Sequence record: MF327008
Direction: 5' to 3' (one strand)
Source of the DNA: Shigella phage Sf24
DNA: 64,000 nt
Shown: piece by piece, positions 17,344 to 64,000 of the stretch
Position numbering within the stretch: the first letter of the stretch is position 1
Layout of the letters: each line of letters starts with the position of its first letter
Translations under genes and position numbers: made by a program
The notes under the pieces: model-generated
Database searches by the model: none
What the model was told of the DNA's origin: nothing
The model's input: the letters and a program-made list of their open reading frames with translations, nothing else

Positions 17344-17508
17344 TTACTCTTCTTTTTCTTTAGATTCCTCTTTCTTCTTTTTAGGAATCTGTTCAGGACC
17401 TTTATTTACTACAGCACCTGACGTTGTTCCAGTAGAGATATTTTCAGGATTACCACCTGAATCTCCAGCGACCATATCTTCTTTAATAAATTCTTTATAT
17501 GTTTTCAT
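17344..17508 (-). CDS. mini-ORF with capsid-targeting-sequence-like N-terminus MKTYKEFIKE (61.1-position)
   Basis: AGAGG RBS; N-terminus resembles the internal-protein CTS; length 38-54 aa depending on an A-run I could not read unambiguously. Confidence 0.35.
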   Translation of the reverse strand: MKTYKEFIKEDMVAGDSGGNPENISTGTTSGAVVNKGPEQIPKKKKEESKEKEE

Positions 17509-22016: not shown

Positions 22017-22865
22017 TTAATCAACTGCTATTGGATGAATAACATTAAACTTATGAAATGCTTCTGATTTTTCTTTACGTGAAACGCACATGCGAAGAAC
22101 CTTTAATGGTTCGTCTTCTTCACCCAACGATTTTCGTTTTTCAATATTAGAAGTTTTCCAACGAGCTTGCTCTGGAAACTCTCTATTGATTTGCTCAAGC
22201 GCTCTATTATGTTTAGAATTACTACGAATTGAACTGCACCCGCCAGGAGCTTGTGCTTTTCCAGATACAACCAGATATTTGAACAAGGCCAAATGCGGAT
22301 AACCTTGATTAATTAAATTGAGAAATGCATACATATCTTCGCACAAATCAATTTTTCCATACCCAATTTGTTCTGTCGTAAGTTTTCCAAGGTCATACCA
22401 TGTATTCGTGAATCCATATGAATTTTCACGATAATTACCCCAAGATGAAGTAATTTTAAAAATTGGTAGGCGAGCATGACCATGATAATACCCGCAATCC
22501 ATGGCATCCTCAACGTATTGAATCAATTCATAGAACTGTTCACGGGTTAATTGATTAATTTTATCTACGCAGCGACGATCATCTTTCTTTCGCATTGAGC
22601 TCATACGAATAGTAGTATCATCGTCAATCATCCAGATTCGTTGACCTGCATACATATCAGTAATTGCTTTACGAGTACCGGCAATTCCGTTTACATCATC
22701 AGGAATAGTTATAATTTTAGCTCTAGACCCATAGGCATCATAATAAGCTTTTTCTTCATGTTCACGCACTACAATATGGGGTTCATAATCAGTCGGAAAC
22801 ATATCAAGGGCAGAAACTGCCCCGACACGCTGATAACTTGGAATTACGAATTGAATCATTTCCAC
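22017..22865 (-). CDS. GT-A fold glycosyltransferase, likely beta-glucosyl-HMC-alpha-glucosyltransferase
   Basis: DDD (DXD) motif WMIDDDTTIR; sits where T4 has beta-gt, between uvsX and 42. Confidence 0.6.
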   Translation of the reverse strand: MEMIQFVIPSYQRVGAVSALDMFPTDYEPHIVVREHEEKAYYDAYGSRAKIITIPDDVNGIAGTRKAITDMYAGQRIWMIDDDTTIRMSSMRKKDDRRCVDKINQLTREQFYELIQYVEDAMDCGYYHGHARLPIFKITSSWGNYRENSYGFTNTWYDLGKLTTEQIGYGKIDLCEDMYAFLNLINQGYPHLALFKYLVVSGKAQAPGGCSSIRSNSKHNRALEQINREFPEQARWKTSNIEKRKSLGEEDEPLKVLRMCVSRKEKSEAFHKFNVIHPIAVD

Positions 22866-34496: not shown

Positions 34497-35696
34497 TTTT
34501 GTAATAATGTCAAACTGTTCTTTAAAGCAGAAGCTTGAATCTTGATGCTGATACAAAAATTCATAAGCTTTTTCGCGTTCACGGTCATAAAGAGTTCGGT
34601 CAGATGACAGTTCTTTAATACGCTCAAATGTTGATTCCATGTCATTTTCATCAAACCAAACGATACCGCTATCATGAGAAATTAACGGAGTATTATCAAC
34701 ACGGAATTTTAAATTTTCGCCAGTAGATTTCCAAAATACCGGAATTGTTCCACATGCACCAAGCTCGAGATGAGTATATTCTAAAGAACGTTGTAGATAT
34801 TTTTTGTCCAACTTACTCAGCTGATAACCAAATCCGGATTTACTCATGCGTTCAAGCATTTCGCTATTTACATAACGGTCAAGAATTTGCGTTGGCAAAT
34901 TAGGAGCAATTTTAATTTGGTCTACTTGATGAAGACGATAATACTCGTATGGAATTCCTTTTTCTTTAATAGGAATGAACGCTGGAGAACGTTCCAGACC
35001 TTCCATAATAGTACTTAGTCCTGCAGGTTTAAGATGTTTTTCATGAAAATCAAACATCTGATAAAAACCTTTCCATGTAGTCGTACGACCAATCCAACGG
35101 TTGATATTCATGTTAATTTCAGAAACATCTTTCCAGTAGGTTGACCGAACCTTCGCAATATCCATAGGAGGCTGAAAGTTATATACTGTCGGTGCTTCTT
35201 CAATATCATCAAACAGAGAAACTGTTTCAGGATACCATTCTTTCATCAGAACTTTATTAAAATCACCATTATCAGAATGGCTAAAAATAACATCAGCTCG
35301 ACGAACAGTTTCTTCTAATCCCAAATTTCGGCGCAAAGAAAGAGAAGAATGGTCATGTTGATAAACTACAACACGAACAGAAGGTTTAATGTTATCAATA
35401 ATTTTTTTATAGTTATTAATAGTGTCTTCTTCAACCGAAGTAGCAGGAACTGAATTGATAATTAGAATATCACAATCATTTACCAGCTTAAGTGTTTTAT
35501 CATATTCTTTTGCCAATAAAACCGGAATTGAAAATGATTTATAATCATGCGCGCAATTACGAGTAAATGATTTATCTTTAGCATAAACCAAAGTTACTTC
35601 ATGACCATTCTTAATAAACCAATCACGTTGCTCAAGAGAAAATTTAGTTACACCACAACCTTCAAGACCTCGAGCCATAAAAATACATACTTTCAT
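34494..35696 (-). CDS. a-gt: alpha-glucosyltransferase
   Basis: 400 aa; MKVCIFMARGLEGCGVTKFSLEQRDWFIKNGHEV near-identical to T4 a-gt as recalled. Confidence 0.93.
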   Translation of the reverse strand: MKVCIFMARGLEGCGVTKFSLEQRDWFIKNGHEVTLVYAKDKSFTRNCAHDYKSFSIPVLLAKEYDKTLKLVNDCDILIINSVPATSVEEDTINNYKKIIDNIKPSVRVVVYQHDHSSLSLRRNLGLEETVRRADVIFSHSDNGDFNKVLMKEWYPETVSLFDDIEEAPTVYNFQPPMDIAKVRSTYWKDVSEINMNINRWIGRTTTWKGFYQMFDFHEKHLKPAGLSTIMEGLERSPAFIPIKEKGIPYEYYRLHQVDQIKIAPNLPTQILDRYVNSEMLERMSKSGFGYQLSKLDKKYLQRSLEYTHLELGACGTIPVFWKSTGENLKFRVDNTPLISHDSGIVWFDENDMESTFERIKELSSDRTLYDREREKAYEFLYQHQDSSFCFKEQFDIITK

Positions 35697-57303: not shown

Positions 57304-57754
57304 AATCCACCACTATTAAATCAATATCAGGAGTAAACATGTCGATTAATTTAGAAACCTTATCCCAATCGCCGCCAGCAATACCACAACCTATGCGTGG
57401 AATGTAAATTACCGGTTTAAACAAAAGGGTTTCTGCCTGTAGATTTAATTCTATCATGCAGTTTACTAAAGCACCATAATCAAGATTAGGACCTGGTTCG
57501 TATTGCGTATACAGGTTATAGCATATACCAAATCCCGTAGGACTATGTTTAAAAACAATAGACATATCGCCTAATTTATCGCGAGAACCGTACTCAGTAG
57601 TGGTTTTATCTATTTCTAAAATTTTGGGATAGGCTCTGGCTAATTGACCCGCTACACCTGAACCCATAGTATGAAAACAATTGCACCCGTGCGCAATAAT
57701 ATTACCTTGAAGAAATAGGGCGACAATATCGCCCTTGATATATTTTACAATCAT
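57275..57754 (-). CDS. macro-domain protein (ADP-ribose binding/hydrolase fold)
   Basis: GDIVALFLQGNIIAHGCNC...MGSGVAGQLARAYP and IGCGIAGGDW resemble the macro-domain glycine-rich loops. Confidence 0.6.
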   Translation of the reverse strand: MIVKYIKGDIVALFLQGNIIAHGCNCFHTMGSGVAGQLARAYPKILEIDKTTTEYGSRDKLGDMSIVFKHSPTGFGICYNLYTQYEPGPNLDYGALVNCMIELNLQAETLLFKPVIYIPRIGCGIAGGDWDKVSKLIDMFTPDIDLIVVDYESALPTSV

Positions 57755-58092
57755 CTAGTACTCAATCCTCGATTATAAGAATCTACCAAACGGTCAACCA
57801 TTGAATGACAAGCGGCTTTATCTTTCTCCTCCGCAACTGAACATTCTAAGGTATTCCACTTTTTAGCATATCGTTTTAACAATGTATCATTTTTGTATCT
57901 GCTTGATTTATCTCTTTCTCCGTCTTTATATGCATATATTAATTTCTGCGCAAATTCAGCTTGGCATGCTTTATTTTTCCCGCAATAATCCGCTGCAGTA
58001 CGGTTTACATACTCTCTAATTTCAGTATATGATGTATCTGCTAACGCAGAAAATGAAATTAATCCTATACATAAAACCAAAATTTTAGTCAT
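57751..58092 (-). CDS. secreted Cys-containing protein
   Basis: signal peptide MTKILVLCIGLISFSALA. Confidence 0.5.
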   Translation of the reverse strand: MTKILVLCIGLISFSALADTSYTEIREYVNRTAADYCGKNKACQAEFAQKLIYAYKDGERDKSSRYKNDTLLKRYAKKWNTLECSVAEEKDKAACHSMVDRLVDSYNRGLSTR

Positions 58093-58630
58093 TTACTATT
58101 TCCAAAAGTTTATTATTTTTAAGGTAATTAGCCTTTTCTAGGACTTCAGAAGCATATTTAGAACCTGCTTTAACATTCCATCCCGAATTATAAGAGGATA
58201 TTGCTTTTCTTATATCGCCCTTATGTATATTTAACCAATAAGAAAGTTCAATGTACGCCCAGGAAGCTGAATTGGACCGTTTATTCAACATTCTTTTTAT
58301 TTCAGCATCGGTCATATTATAACCAAGTTCCTTAACTCTTGCTCGCATAGTAGGCAAATAATTTTGGAACATTCCGTAGGCGTGATGCTTTGGTTTAGAT
58401 TTTAAATTAACTCCGCCAGAGCTTTCTTGCCATAAAATAGCAGCCATTATATGACCTAATCCGCTCTTGTGGATATTTTTGTGTGTTTTATATTTTCCAT
58501 CCTTAGAAAATTGTTCCCCGAATTGATACGCGTAACGCATGTTATCGAGTTGGACATTACTGAAAGTATGCTCGGAGCTATGTGCCATCATTGAAATGGC
58601 CAATAGACCAGCGAGTAGTGCTTTTCTCAT
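58085..58630 (-). CDS. periplasmic lytic transglycosylase (SLT domain)
   Basis: signal peptide; motifs ILWQESSGG, AYGMFQ, SYNSG. Confidence 0.65.
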   Translation of the reverse strand: MRKALLAGLLAISMMAHSSEHTFSNVQLDNMRYAYQFGEQFSKDGKYKTHKNIHKSGLGHIMAAILWQESSGGVNLKSKPKHHAYGMFQNYLPTMRARVKELGYNMTDAEIKRMLNKRSNSASWAYIELSYWLNIHKGDIRKAISSYNSGWNVKAGSKYASEVLEKANYLKNNKLLEIVND

Positions 58631-58637
58631 GCTTACC

Positions 58638-59099
58638 TCATTGAGTTTTAATTACTGCTTTAGAAGCCTTTCCTGGTAAACGACGACTGTTGATAATTGC
58701 CATCCTGCATTGAAGTGACGGGTTTTTGAACTTCTCATTAGGCTTACAAACCGTAAATCCAAGCCAAAGATTTCCATCTGTGATTTCTAAACGTCCAGGA
58801 CGATATTCAACCCCATCAATAAAATCCTCGTCAATGTCAGGACGCGGAGGCATACTCAGGAATTCATTAACTTCTAAAACATGGTCTTTTATTTTATGGA
58901 ATAATTCAAAAACATATGTCTCATCAATCTCCCGTTGAATTGCACGATCAAGAAGATGTTGAGAATATTTTAGATGAAACGATGAGACTCCTGCTGCCTT
59001 TGATGCCTCACGAATCTCATTGTTAATTTGACGAAACTCCGACTCAAAGTGACGACGAAGCTTATTTCGACGGATAAAAACTTCTGTATTGATAGTCAT
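58638..59099 (-). CDS. regB: endoribonuclease RegB
   Basis: 153 aa MTINTEVFIRRNKLRRHFESEFRQ, T4 RegB-like. Confidence 0.9.
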   Translation of the reverse strand: MTINTEVFIRRNKLRRHFESEFRQINNEIREASKAAGVSSFHLKYSQHLLDRAIQREIDETYVFELFHKIKDHVLEVNEFLSMPPRPDIDEDFIDGVEYRPGRLEITDGNLWLGFTVCKPNEKFKNPSLQCRMAIINSRRLPGKASKAVIKTQ

Positions 59100-59126
59100 G
59101 TTATTCTCCTCTTAACTGATAGAAAA

Positions 59127-59157
59127 ATTATACCACAGTCAAGAGGAAAAGTAAACA
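59127..59157 (-). promoter_or_regulatory. T4-type early promoter upstream of regB
   Basis: GTTTAC ... TGTGGTATAAT on minus strand. Confidence 0.6.
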
Positions 59158-59158
59158 A

Positions 59159-59437
59159 TTATTCTTTAAATCTAATCAATTTATTCATAGACTTTGAAAC
59201 TTCTGCACGAACCTCATGCAAGTTTTTAAGCTGTTCAAGACGCTGTTCATAGTAAGCAATTTCATCTTCTTCGAGACAGTCCTGTGAATCTTCTTTAAGA
59301 TAACGTGCATAGTCCTGGAAAGCTTTACGGACTACTTCCTGGAAGTCATCAAGACTTTGAATTTTCTTAGGAGCAACAGATACACGACGAGGGGCAGTAT
59401 AATACTCATAACCAAACCCTGCACTTAATTGAGCCAT
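59159..59437 (-). CDS. hypothetical protein
   Basis: start likely at internal Met. Confidence 0.45.
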
Positions 59438-59703
59438 TAGTATTTTTCCTCTGGTTGGAACACTGCACGACAAGCCCACATACTGGCTTCTTTGAGTTTC
59501 GTTTTAGCAATAGTTAACTGATCGAGGCTTTCAGCATAATTCTTCGCGAGTTCATCATCTTCACAATTATCTAGTGCTTCCCAGAATTCATCGTATAAAG
59601 CGTCAAAGATAAGTCCTAAACGAACTTCAGCGTCTTTAATAGCATTCACTTTACCGATTTTCTCTTCAGTATGCGGCTTATAACCTTTAATGTCTTCAAT
59701 CAT
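59437..59703 (-). CDS. hypothetical protein
   Basis: start likely at internal Met MIEDIKG. Confidence 0.45.
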
Positions 59704-59917
59704 ATTTGACTTCCTCACCAGTACATAAATTATATTCAACTAAACGAATAGGTTCATGAATGCCATATCCTTGAACAGAAATTTCTGTTGTAGGATAAAT
59801 TCCATCAATACCACCCATATTCCATGCTTCATTAAATTGCTGTTCGCCTGAATTACTAAACCACTCGGCGAAAGCATTTAACACATCTTTAGAACCTTCA
59901 ATAATTATCTTTGCCAT
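59696..59917 (-). CDS. hypothetical small protein
   Basis: 73-aa ORF. Confidence 0.5.
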   Translation of the reverse strand: MAKIIIEGSKDVLNAFAEWFSNSGEQQFNEAWNMGGIDGIYPTTEISVQGYGIHEPIRLVEYNLCTGEEVKYD

Positions 59918-60279
59918 TACAAACTCTCAGTAAAGGTACGAGCGATAACGTCGCGCTGCTGTTCCGGAGTCAGAGAGTTAAAGCGAACTGCATAACCGGA
60001 TACACGGATGGTCAGCTGCGGATATTTTTCCGGATGCTTAACTGCATCTTCCAGAGTTTCACGACGCAGAACGTTAACATTCAGGTGTTGACCACCTTCA
60101 ATTTTAACCGTAGGCTGTGGTTCAATTTCAATTTCACGGGCATGCAAACCGTAGAAAATTTCCGGGTCTACAAAAGAGTCCTCTTTAAAGGTTTTAGAGA
60201 CAATAATTCGTGCTTGAATACCATCTTCAAAATAAATAGTACCTTTATGCGTGCCTTCAAGAATTTGATATGCTTTCAT
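59917..60279 (-). CDS. autonomous glycyl radical cofactor, GrcA/YfiD-like (T4 Y06I-like)
   Basis: C-terminus [59 protein letters not shown] with glycyl-radical motif RVSGYAV; GC-richer, host-like composition. Confidence 0.85.
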
Positions 60280-60285
60280 ATAACC

Positions 60286-60615
60286 TCAATTAGAAAATAA
60301 ATTTATCCAAGATTGTTCTTTAATTAAAAATGGCTCAGAATCATATGCCATTAAACTTTGGGTGATTAGTCCTTTAAAAGGTCCATCAATAAATTCCATG
60401 GTAAAATATGGAATTTTATTCATTAATCTTGCATTAGGAGCAGTGCACAAAACTCTGCATCCTTTGAATACGCCTTTTTGTAATTTGTATTGCTTAGGAT
60501 AAAATTCGCTCAAGACGTTGTTATTTGCCAAAATTTCAAAATGATTCACCAATTTATTTTTAATAGTTTTTGGCGAAAAATAAAGATATTCGAAAAGTTG
60601 CGTGTCTGTCATCAT
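60286..60615 (-). CDS. hypothetical protein
   Basis: start likely at internal Met. Confidence 0.45.
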   Translation of the reverse strand: MMTDTQLFEYLYFSPKTIKNKLVNHFEILANNNVLSEFYPKQYKLQKGVFKGCRVLCTAPNARLMNKIPYFTMEFIDGPFKGLITQSLMAYDSEPFLIKEQSWINLFSN

Positions 60616-61115
60616 TGCATTCCGATTATGAAAAACTGTGGACGAGTAATACCACCAATGCAACATTTAATATTACAGCAGCAGTGTACAGTGTCAATAT
60701 GGACACTATAAATCTTATCCATATCAGGAGATTTGACAGGCTCGTCAATTATATACAAAATTCGCGAAAGCGATAAACCTCTGAACTTACTTCCTTTATT
60801 ACCGATAAAACTACGGACAGAATCGGTAAATAAACGGAATCGAATATCATCGCTAGAATAACGAGAAAATTCTTTTTTAATGTGGCCTGCAGAAATTTTA
60901 GCGTAAGCTGAAGTATTAGAAAGAACAATAACTGTTCCACCGTCATACAACCAATTAGCGGCAAAATTAGTTACTGCAGTTGATTTACCAGATTGACGTC
61001 CACCATCTAGTCGAAGTGTGCAGTACTGTTTAAGTAATTCTTCAAATGGCGGGATATATTCGTTTTTACAAATTTCTTCTACTCTAGCGTCAGAATGGTG
61101 TGTAAAAGCATTCAT
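60612..61115 (-). CDS. small P-loop NTPase
   Basis: Walker A GGRQSGKST; Walker B-like IIDEP. Confidence 0.55.
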   Translation of the reverse strand: MNAFTHHSDARVEEICKNEYIPPFEELLKQYCTLRLDGGRQSGKSTAVTNFAANWLYDGGTVIVLSNTSAYAKISAGHIKKEFSRYSSDDIRFRLFTDSVRSFIGNKGSKFRGLSLSRILYIIDEPVKSPDMDKIYSVHIDTVHCCCNIKCCIGGITRPQFFIIGMQ

Positions 61116-61303
61116 CAGGATAGATAAGGACCAGTTAAAAATGTTCTCATTTTATTCTCTCTAAATTTGGGCCATTCCGTGGCGCATGAATTGTCCATTT
61201 CTGTATTTACCCATTACCGCACTCAGGCTCGACCTTATTACAGGTTGGCGGGAATCCCTCATAGAATCATGAGGTCCAGGTTGTTCCCATATTTCTTATT
61301 TGC

Positions 61304-61777
61304 TTATTTGAATGATTTGACGTACTGAATAGAGCCTTTGCTATTCACGAAAGCGATTTTACCATTTTTGTTATACATGGTAGCAGTACGCTGATAGCCA
61401 TAAGTTTGCTTACCAGATTGATAACCAACTAATGCAAAATTATCTTCACCCATTTTATTCTGTTTGGCGCGGATACGTTCATGACCGTGCGCCATAAGAA
61501 CCTTAGCATCGCCAGTTGAAATTGATCTACGAGTTTTTTCATCTTCAACTGTATTAACAAAGTCGTCAAATGAATCAAATTTAGCGTGAGATTTATTATA
61601 CAGTTTTCCATCTACTGCATAATTATATCCCTGTACATCCATCTCAACTTCTGTACCATCATCCAATACAGCAGTGATTTTTTGACCTTTTTTAAATTTC
61701 AAAAGATCAGTAAAAGATTCAGCAATAATTTGAGAATTAATAGCTGCTTCAGTGATAAATTCTTGATATGTTTTCAT
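61304..61777 (-). CDS. internal protein (IP) with capsid targeting sequence
   Basis: N-terminus MKTYQEFITEA matches the T4 IP CTS consensus MKTYQEFIAEA. Confidence 0.75.
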   Translation of the reverse strand: MKTYQEFITEAAINSQIIAESFTDLLKFKKGQKITAVLDDGTEVEMDVQGYNYAVDGKLYNKSHAKFDSFDDFVNTVEDEKTRRSISTGDAKVLMAHGHERIRAKQNKMGEDNFALVGYQSGKQTYGYQRTATMYNKNGKIAFVNSKGSIQYVKSFK

Positions 61778-61786
61778 ATGTTTCCT

Positions 61787-62203
61787 TTAAATGTAAATAT
61801 TTTTACCGTAATACTTATACCAGTGTGGTTTCATTAAAATTTTTTCATCAAGTCGTTGTTGACTCAATTTAATAGCTGATTTGCATGGATTATAATCATT
61901 TTTCCATTCTACTGGAATATCGCTGATGTCAGGAACTTCAGTATCTTTTATACTGAACCCTCGTTTTAAGCATTCCGTTATAATGTCTAATTGACGCTTT
62001 CGCAAAAATTCTAACTTATCGTAAAAGAACGTAACATGACCAGAACCTAAAATAAACTCGGAAGATATTTTAAAATCTTTAACGCGCTTACCGTTTGCCA
62101 CATGCTTACGAACTATACCAAAAACACGCGGCAATTCACGGTATTCTGCGATTAAATGTTGATCAGCAAGTTCAGATACTAAAGTCAAATTAATACGAGT
62201 CAT
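61787..62203 (-). CDS. denV: endonuclease V, pyrimidine dimer glycosylase DenV
   Basis: 138 aa [30 protein letters not shown]4 DenV-like. Confidence 0.93.
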
Positions 62204-62225
62204 TTTATCCCTCCAAGTAACTGTG

Positions 62226-62259
62226 AATATACTATCACAATTCTAGGAGAAAGTAAACA
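62226..62259 (-). promoter_or_regulatory. T4-type early promoter upstream of denV
   Basis: GTTTAC and TGTGATAGTAT on minus strand. Confidence 0.45.
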
Positions 62260-62262
62260 ACT

Positions 62263-62793
<531 letters not shown>

Positions 62794-63249
62794 TTAAAAG
62801 AGGCTGTTCATTATTCGGTAAAGTGAAGGACCCATCACATATTGCCACTGAGTACGAGGAATAAGGGCAAAAGCATCCATCTCTGGAATCATAACACCAT
62901 CTTTATTTTCAAAATAAGACTCGCAATGGCAATTTCTGAACATCTCATGCTCTACTGGAATCGTATAATAAAATAACTGTAAGTCTTTATTACTAGAATA
63001 TTTAAATACACCTAGGTCTTCTAGAAGGTCTGGATTATAATTGTTAAAACCAGTCTCTTCTGAGCATTCTCTTCGTGCTGCATCTAATGCGCTTAAATCA
63101 GAATTTTCTACACGCCCCTTTGGAATATCCCAGCGATGTGCCATCATTCCAGGCTTACGAGAACCAGTAACTCGTCCCATAAATAAATCTTTATCTTCTG
63201 TCATAAAGATAATACCAGCTGATAATGTTTTCATTTTAATTTCCTGCAT
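62794..63249 (-). CDS. nudE: Nudix hydrolase NudE
   Basis: Nudix box GRVENSDLSALDAARRECSEETGF. Confidence 0.85.
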   Translation of the reverse strand: MQEIKMKTLSAGIIFMTEDKDLFMGRVTGSRKPGMMAHRWDIPKGRVENSDLSALDAARRECSEETGFNNYNPDLLEDLGVFKYSSNKDLQLFYYTIPVEHEMFRNCHCESYFENKDGVMIPEMDAFALIPRTQWQYVMGPSLYRIMNSLF

Positions 63250-63719
63250 TCAGTGATAAAATTATTTAAATTTTGAGTATATTTCTTTTCATCAAAAATC
63301 TTTTGCTGCCTACGTAACCGCCATGGCATTTCAATGAACACGCACCATATTCCTGATAGTACTGCTGCTGTAAAAATATTAACAAGTATAATTAAAAGAA
63401 TCCAATCTTCCGTTCTGCCTACTGGACTTTCTCCAAAGAAGCAAAATACAAATGATGTCACAGGAAAACTAATAATATACCACAGAATAACCTTCTTATC
63501 TGTGAACCAATCAGCGTTCGTTAACTTAGCACGACCATTTTGAATACACACGAATTTATCATCTGTTACAGTAGATGGCTTAACTGCTTGATATCCCATT
63601 CTAAACTCCCTAATTAATCGTTTCTTTGTATCTTTAGAACAGCCACTCCAATCAACTCTATCAACTGAAATGCCATCGTCCCCATCATCTAAATCATACC
63701 AGCGAGTTTTTAAAATCAT
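63231..63719 (-). CDS. membrane protein, paralog pair
   Basis: two TM helices; C-terminus NFITECRKLK. Confidence 0.5.
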   Translation of the reverse strand: MILKTRWYDLDDGDDGISVDRVDWSGCSKDTKKRLIREFRMGYQAVKPSTVTDDKFVCIQNGRAKLTNADWFTDKKVILWYIISFPVTSFVFCFFGESPVGRTEDWILLIILVNIFTAAVLSGIWCVFIEMPWRLRRQQKIFDEKKYTQNLNNFITECRKLK

Positions 63720-63985
63720 TTAATTTTCCTACAATCACTCACAAACTCTTCCATTGATTCTTTTTCAATATAAGACATGTAGTTATTATATTCATTTAAT
63801 TGTATTTTGTAATCCTTTTTTCTTTGCCAATTTATTTTAAAATTATCATAATGAAAATATAACATGGTACCAAAGAATGAAAATAATGAAATCGCTATAG
63901 TATAACGAAGTTCACTCCAAACTTCTATTATATCTACTATACCGCTGACGTTACTGCGGATGTTTAAAATAATACAGTCAATCAT
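63716..63985 (-). CDS. membrane protein, paralog pair
   Basis: hydrophobic core; C-terminus EFVSDCRKIK. Confidence 0.5.
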   Translation of the reverse strand: MIDCIILNIRSNVSGIVDIIEVWSELRYTIAISLFSFFGTMLYFHYDNFKINWQRKKDYKIQLNEYNNYMSYIEKESMEEFVSDCRKIK

Positions 63986-64000
63986 TAATCCAATAAGACT

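Follow-up and report, generated by a model that had tools for sequence, protein, structure and literature searches.

ip4 of Shigella phage Sf24: a predicted internal head protein of T2/K3 type encoded at the e-denV-vs.8 locus, and its possible function

T-even phages carry many ip genes, for which Silas et al. 2025 cite Repoila et al. 1994 (PMC12373910), and the review literature describes these genes as poorly conserved among T-even phages. In T4 they occupy two IP loci (PMC12373910). At one of them, next to 57B, lies the gene for IPI, a small injected protein from a hypervariable cassette locus. The mature form of IPI comprises 76 residues (PMC3012670); as these are 76 of 95 residues, 19 are removed. 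IPI* inhibits GmrSD-CT596, and reviews describe its NMR structure. At the other locus, for which the annotated T4 order is e-ipIII-ipII-denV-vs.8, the genes for IPII and IPIII (100 and 193 amino acids) are found, and these two proteins inhibit GmrSD-ECOR21 and GmrSD-ECOR17 (PMC12373910). Each of T4 Ip1, Ip2 and Ip3 inhibits one distinct GmrSD, with no cross-protection; T2 and T6 are without Ip2 and Ip3, and T2 is restricted by both GmrSD-ECOR21 and GmrSD-ECOR17 (PMC12373910). In the Tequatrovirus Bas37, a protein with a capsid-targeting sequence (CTS) encoded at the ipI locus, Bas37_0260, inhibits McrBC (bioRxiv 10.1101/2025.11.20.689424), so the internal-protein sets of T2-like phages can hit type IV enzymes besides GmrSD. 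The critical residues of the CTS have been mapped experimentally in IPIII, where positions 4 and 7 serve targeting and positions 8 and 10 processing (PMC9026906). On this basis, a CTS was taken here as a leader of about 10 residues with these positions in place, ending in Leu or Ile-x-Glu and followed by a small residue.

The stretch of phage DNA analysed here (64,000 nucleotides, hereafter the window) contains an ORF at 61304..61777 on the minus strand, which is also the strand of all other features of this locus. The ORF, ip4, opens with an ATG codon, is preceded at a distance of a few bases by an AAGGA Shine-Dalgarno sequence (61787->61783), and encodes 157 amino acids beginning MKTYQEFITEAAINS... 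(at length, MKTYQEFITEAAINSQ... in the ORF translation). Over its full length, residues 1-157, the product matches the Pfam family DUF7412 (PF24183, a profile of 158 positions with a cut-off of 27 bits) at 318 bits and E=1.3e-95, and a second full-length match, at E=1.1e-101, is to PHROG 3155, 'internal virion protein'. The UniProt entry Q38388, 'Ip4 [Enterobacteria phage K3]', is 98% identical over 157 alignment columns. When searched by tblastn, mature Ip4 was 99.3% identical to the T2 gene and likewise to the RB32 gene, which is annotated Ip4, 'similar to T2, RB70 Ip4'; the genes at the same site in AR1 and GiZh are named 'Ip4' and ipIV, respectively. Going by these database names and sequence identities, the ORF is ip4 as known from the T2 group (T2/K3/RB70/RB32/AR1), with which it shares its length, its CTS and its locus between e and vs.8. 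It differs from T2-group Ip4 in one residue, S87 versus A87, and by about 5% synonymous divergence. The name Ip4 is reportedly due to Repoila et al. 1994. In the open-access literature we found neither Ip4 together with phage T4 or internal proteins nor DUF7412. Mature Ip4 is encoded in 469 phage records (tblastn), with at least 95% identity in 305 of these, and the exact denV-ip4 junction recurs in 163 records, including those of phiD1, GiZh and HY01. Because the gene and the junction are on record in hundreds of phages, the arrangement is one of the frequent alleles of a locus already known to be polymorphic. What the preliminary description of this DNA had presented as a variant is thus a gene that already bears a name in T2, K3, RB32 and AR1; gene, name and leader have all been recorded before, and as a genome feature it is nothing new.

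The leader of the protein is the part that ties it to the T4 internal proteins. Residues 1-10, MKTYQEFITE (61748..61777), contain all four of the residues critical in IPIII (Y4, F7, I8 and E10), are followed by Ala, and depart from the T4 CTS by a single difference, A9T. Cleavage by the prohead protease gp21 is predicted after Glu10 (I-T-E/A, with the slash marking the site), and the leader of T4 IPI ends in the same tripeptide. The corresponding DNA is part of a 60-nt cassette at 61746..61805, comprising the ribosome-binding site (RBS), the start codon and the CTS codons and including the first 32 nt of the CDS, which in blastn aligns with the 5' ends of T4 ipII (95% identity) and T4 ipIII (93.6%). 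With the whole cassette shared in this way, the CTS cannot be put down to a chance resemblance. Both the ORF call and the 60-nt identity uphold the earlier report of a 157-residue ORF with the CTS MKTYQEFITEA at this site. The gene also has the expected setting, lying at the polymorphic IP locus e-denV-vs.8 behind the common RBS/CTS cassette. A second possible gp21 site, I-A-E/S, is suggested by its motif and by analogy to T4 IPI at the end of residues 11-20, AAINSQIIAE (61718..61747), so that a longer or two-step propeptide, as in IPI, is possible in Ip4 too. E20 is nearly invariant in the Ip4 family and has Ile, Leu or Val at -3; if the site is used, a mature Ip4* of 137 amino acids would result, and the mature N-terminus may be either Ala11 or Ser21. 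Distant relatives start with MNFEQFLNE/S or MNFKDFLNE/S, in which the leader has diverged and the (L or I)-x-E/S layout is the same. Mature Ip4 (about 15-16.5 kDa) is basic, with a pI of about 9.1; IPII and IPIII are basic as well, both with a pI of 9.6. Judging from the homology of the CTS, packaging, cleavage and injection of Ip4 are very likely, and the route would be expected to be the same as for IPII and IPIII.

Past the leader, Ip4 is not a T4 protein. BLASTP of Ip4 against T4 IPI, IPII and IPIII gave a convincing alignment only in the first 10-13 residues, and Ip4 is unlike IPII and IPIII past residue 13 or so, as well as in length. The mature part of IPI, from the other IP locus, is unrelated too. 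A faint likeness between Ip4 and IPI in the N-terminal beta-hairpin of Ip4 was considered and was gone when the leaders were removed (BLASTP, E about 10); in neither sequence nor fold was mature Ip4 found to resemble IPI* or any protein of solved structure. The comparison with all three T4 proteins therefore agrees with the preliminary description in calling the gene one of non-T4 type, and the finding that was to speak against that description, an ordinary IPII or IPIII ortholog in T4 gene order, did not emerge: BLASTP similarity of Ip4 to IPII and IPIII is confined to the leader, and the T4 order differs. In an AF2 model of Ip4, of moderate quality (pLDDT 72.8, pTM 0.67), the propeptide is part of an N-terminal helix, and the rest of the chain forms a beta-hairpin, three short helices and, at the C-terminus, a beta-sheet. 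With Foldseek, the one significant match in BFVD was K3 Ip4 (Q38388), and a sequence search of the PDB with Ip4 gave nothing below E=0.5. No enzymatic domain or motif is recognisable in Ip4.

The gene order at the locus was compared with those of other phages. In the window, denV (endonuclease V; 61787..62203, Pfam Pyr_excise, E=2e-13) ends upstream of ip4, with 9 nt from its stop to the ip4 start, and is itself preceded by e (endolysin; 62263..62757, Pfam Phage_lysozyme, 97% amino acid identity to T4 e) and nudE (62794..63249, Pfam NUDIX). The spacer between denV and e, 62204-62262, measures 59 nt and contains no ORF. Two further statements of the preliminary description accordingly stand: ip4 lies 3' of denV, on its regB side, and the denV-e interval, occupied by ipII and ipIII in T4, is without an IP ORF, so that the T4 genes are on the opposite side of denV from ip4. 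At least five configurations of the e-vs.8 locus occur among sequenced phages. T4 has e-ipIII-ipII-denV-vs.8; T2 and RB32 have e-ip4 with no denV at the locus; the phage analysed here, GiZh, phiD1 and HY01 have e-denV-ip4; Elenatom has e-denV and no IP gene; and the Klebsiella phage SmallBear_ER8 has e, an ip4-like gene and a second IP gene. In SmallBear_ER8 (vB_KpnM; L006 2450-3588), the Ip4 homologue, of about 70% identity, begins one base after the annotated end of e, and a 190-aa annotated 'internal virion protein' comes after it, an arrangement by which both the e-proximal IP locus and Ip4 reach beyond Tequatrovirus.

When the window was aligned with T4 by blastn, 57605-61292, extending up to and including the vs.8 5' end, was 95.6% identical, the aligned part of denV (61914-62207) 78.6% identical at the nucleotide level, and the e and nudE region (62214-64000) 93% identical. 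Between these, the Ip4-specific body with 11 nt of 3' flank (61293..61745) had no T4 match by blastn, and is collinear with T2 at 93%. Collinearity with T2 extends over the locus with the exception of denV: a denV cassette of 421 nt (61793-62213) takes the place of 23 nt of T2, with the conserved stretch that follows e on one side and the ip4 RBS on the other, and T2 homology picks up again at 61792. The junctions of the locus fall at the 60-nt RBS+CTS cassette, the upstream part of which also encodes the last denV codons. The shared leader cassette is a likely recombination substrate, and the boundaries suggest that recombination took place there. Across the sequences compared, the locus varies by the presence, absence and swapping of whole cassettes, not by divergence of the Ip4 sequence. 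The hypervariability that had been ascribed to IP loci is therefore borne out for the locus, which is polymorphic by cassettes, and not for Ip4 itself, for which dN/dS is about 0.01.

Several smaller features of the neighbouring genes were recorded. The denV allele is divergent, its protein being 77.5% identical to T4 DenV, whereas amino acid identity to T4 lies at 97-99% in e, nudE and regB; the RegB cleavage motif GGAG (62214->62211) occurs within the denV Shine-Dalgarno sequence. On its right-hand side the locus is bordered by a conserved vs.8-like gene at 60612..61115 (PHROG 1488), which here starts MNAFTHH and encodes 167 amino acids, while T4 vs.8 has 219. The 188-nt spacer between this gene and ip4 (61116..61303) is homologous in blastn to the N-terminal coding region of T4 vs.8, and is a 5' remnant of vs.8 with a stop codon that leaves a 33-aa ORF at 61161..61262; T2 is interrupted alike. 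Either vs.8 can do without the N-terminal extension seen in T4, or the start of the T4 gene has been annotated wrongly. As the spacer is relatively GC-rich, it was considered as a small RNA and rejected, since Rfam (E<=1) and ARAGORN returned nothing in it and blastn identified it as the vs.8 remnant. The sole Rfam match, to SNORD116 inside ip4, was under the gathering score and is attributed to chance.

Candidate signals for both early and late transcription precede ip4. The late-promoter motif TATAAATA occurs four times in the window, and only the two copies 5' of e, at 62791->62784 and 62778->62771, could serve e-denV-ip4. Between these motifs and ip4, the minus strand showed no terminator-like site. 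In the e-denV spacer, a promoter-like sequence, GTTTAC-N18-TAGTAT (62229..62258), is a candidate early promoter for denV-ip4. We take it to resemble the T4 early promoter consensus; a generic sigma-70 scan did not return it, and the spacer region that holds it is conserved downstream of e in T2 and T4. Early as well as late expression of ip4 is possible, the signals for it being known as sequence motifs.

The ip4 ORF is a real, constrained gene under strong purifying selection. Compared with the genes of T2, RB32 and GiZh, it differs by 21-23 synonymous changes and a single non-synonymous one (the dN/dS of about 0.01 given above), and compared with the homologue of a Klebsiella phage the dN/dS is 0.10-0.14. 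The protein is near-invariant in Tequatrovirus and 60-70% identical across phages of Klebsiella, Salmonella and Serratia. Among 1.84 billion representative proteins, a profile search matched only 7, apparently members or fragments of the same small family; one distant homologue, P0015, sits on a contig of 2.8 kb, and its context is uninformative. A foreign origin was also considered on grounds of composition and was rejected, with a GC content of 0.338 for ip4 versus 0.343 for the window and a GC3 like that of the neighbouring genes.

Ip4 appears to belong to a larger set. In GiZh (L008 3690-4257), ipV and ipVI, encoding Ip5 and Ip6, are located at the 57B-proximal IP locus, where they replace ipI, which suggests that Ip4, Ip5 and Ip6 travel together as a T2-type internal-protein set; the present window stops short of that locus. 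Bas37_0260 is, like Ip4, a non-T4 internal protein spotted by its N-terminal leader, and belongs to the other (ipI) locus. Given that GiZh carries Ip5 and Ip6 at the ipI locus, Bas37_0260 is probably Ip5 or Ip6 and not Ip4.

The account that we favour, and regard on balance as probable when taken as a whole, is that of a T2/K3-type internal head protein of a T2/T6-like Tequatrovirus, with early and late expression, packaging, gp21 cleavage, injection and nuclease inhibition. denV and ip4 would be transcribed together, first from the early-type promoter in the e-denV spacer and, at the late stage of infection, from the two promoters 5' of e. The 10-residue N-terminal CTS would take Ip4 into the prohead scaffolding core, and gp21 would cleave it behind Glu10 (ITE/A) and possibly also behind Glu20 (IAE/S). 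The basic mature protein would remain with the DNA in the head and enter the cell with it. In the cell, Ip4 would most likely act as a stoichiometric inhibitor of a type IV restriction enzyme that attacks glucosyl-hmC DNA, with a target other than those blocked by T4 Ip1, Ip2 and Ip3. An anti-restriction role is plausible as a reasonable analogy with these proteins, one that the 2025 findings on Ip1-3 and Bas37 have made considerably stronger, and it is a working hypothesis that the field already holds and has tested in part. That Ip4 does inhibit some modification-dependent nuclease is, by the same analogy, close to an even call, and we would place it just on the lower side. The window holds glucosylation genes of T2/T6 type (a-gt and beta-alpha-gt, with T4 b-gt absent), which puts the phage DNA in the substrate class of type IV enzymes. 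We tentatively propose, without calling it probable, that Ip4 is an injected inhibitor of a further nuclease or early defence specific to T2/T6-type hmC DNA, meaning DNA that is alpha-glucosyl, gentiobiosyl or partly unglucosylated. As to GmrSD, the set of genes named ip4-10 gave no reproducible inhibition of active GmrSD variants (Silas et al. 2025, Supplementary Fig. 9; PMC12373910). T2, moreover, has Ip4 and is yet restricted by the ECOR21 and ECOR17 GmrSDs, so Ip4 is no substitute for Ip2 or Ip3.

The conservation of Ip4 bears on these readings in more than one way. Near-invariance within a genus and 60-70% identity across genera are unusual for a fast-evolving inhibitor and count against one engaged in an arms race. 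They suggest a target that is conserved and not fast-diversifying, as would be the case if Ip4 were an injected effector acting outside type IV restriction, either on another early-acting defence, for instance an exonuclease or a sensor of abortive infection, or in host takeover. Such an effector would follow the same CTS-based packaging logic and would suit the negative result with the GmrSD variants, and in T4 the ADP-ribosyltransferase Alt is likewise packaged and injected (PMC9026906), so that injection is not reserved for nuclease inhibitors. We nevertheless consider it unlikely, since all CTS-type small IPs of known function so far inhibit type IV enzymes, and Ip4 is without a recognisable enzymatic domain or motif of its own. 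The strong purifying selection on Ip4 and its conservation in phages of several genera, like the lack of inhibition in the GmrSD panel, could equally be read as marks of a generic DNA-associated internal protein, which would serve charge neutralisation, condensation or ejection, or would shield the incoming DNA by coating it, with no specific host enzyme as its target; the basic pI shared with IPII and IPIII points the same way. T4 IPII and IPIII were themselves formerly viewed in this manner but proved to be specific GmrSD inhibitors (PMC12373910). The behaviour of ip4 as a cassette is, in addition, typical of dispensable IP genes, in that it is missing from T4 and Elenatom and occurs in T2 without denV, and such dispensability and swapping make the generic role distinctly doubtful. 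Finally, it is very improbable that Ip4 is an ordinary early intracellular protein that is not packaged and owes its CTS-like start to recombination, for although the 5' cassette is a recombination module common to several genes, and the small early ORF 61.1, whose product to our knowledge is not a head protein, also has a CTS-like start, Ip4 keeps all four critical CTS residues, the leader and the x-E/S or x-E/A cleavage layout persist at about 25-30% identity, and late promoter motifs feed the operon.

If Ip4 is an injected inhibitor as proposed, the constancy of its sequence would mirror a conserved target surface, and Ip4 and its target would add an inhibitor/target pair of unrelated fold to the arms race between Ip proteins and type IV restriction. 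After the assignment of Ip1-3 to GmrSD and of the Bas37 protein to McrBC, Ip4 is one remaining orphan among the injected proteins. It is also very common, occurring in T2, RB32, phiD1, many Tequatroviruses of therapeutic type, and Klebsiella and Salmonella relatives. Its target would aid host-range prediction for T2-like phages used in therapy and might expose another defence system.

Two observations were made elsewhere in the window. In the place that b-gt takes in T4, between uvsX and gene 42, a gene at 22017..22865 (minus strand) encodes a beta-glucosyl-HMC-alpha-glucosyltransferase of 282 amino acids (PHROG 842, E=5.5e-89; Pfam TAGT). An a-gt gene, 90.8% identical to that of T4, is found at 34497-35696, gene 42 is also present, and tblastn detected no homologue of T4 b-gt in the window; from beta-alpha-gt and a-gt without b-gt it follows that the phage has hmC glucosylation of T2/T6 type. 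Immediately 5' of gene 61, which encodes the primase, a 54-aa ORF at 17344..17508 (minus strand) starts MKTYKEFIKE/D, which is CTS-like and has the I-x-E motif. This ORF, which matches PHROG 1823, a group of unknown function, and no Pfam family, is the orthologue of T4 gp61.1 (MKTFKEFIKE..., 95% over 42 amino acids), and its product is small and charged.
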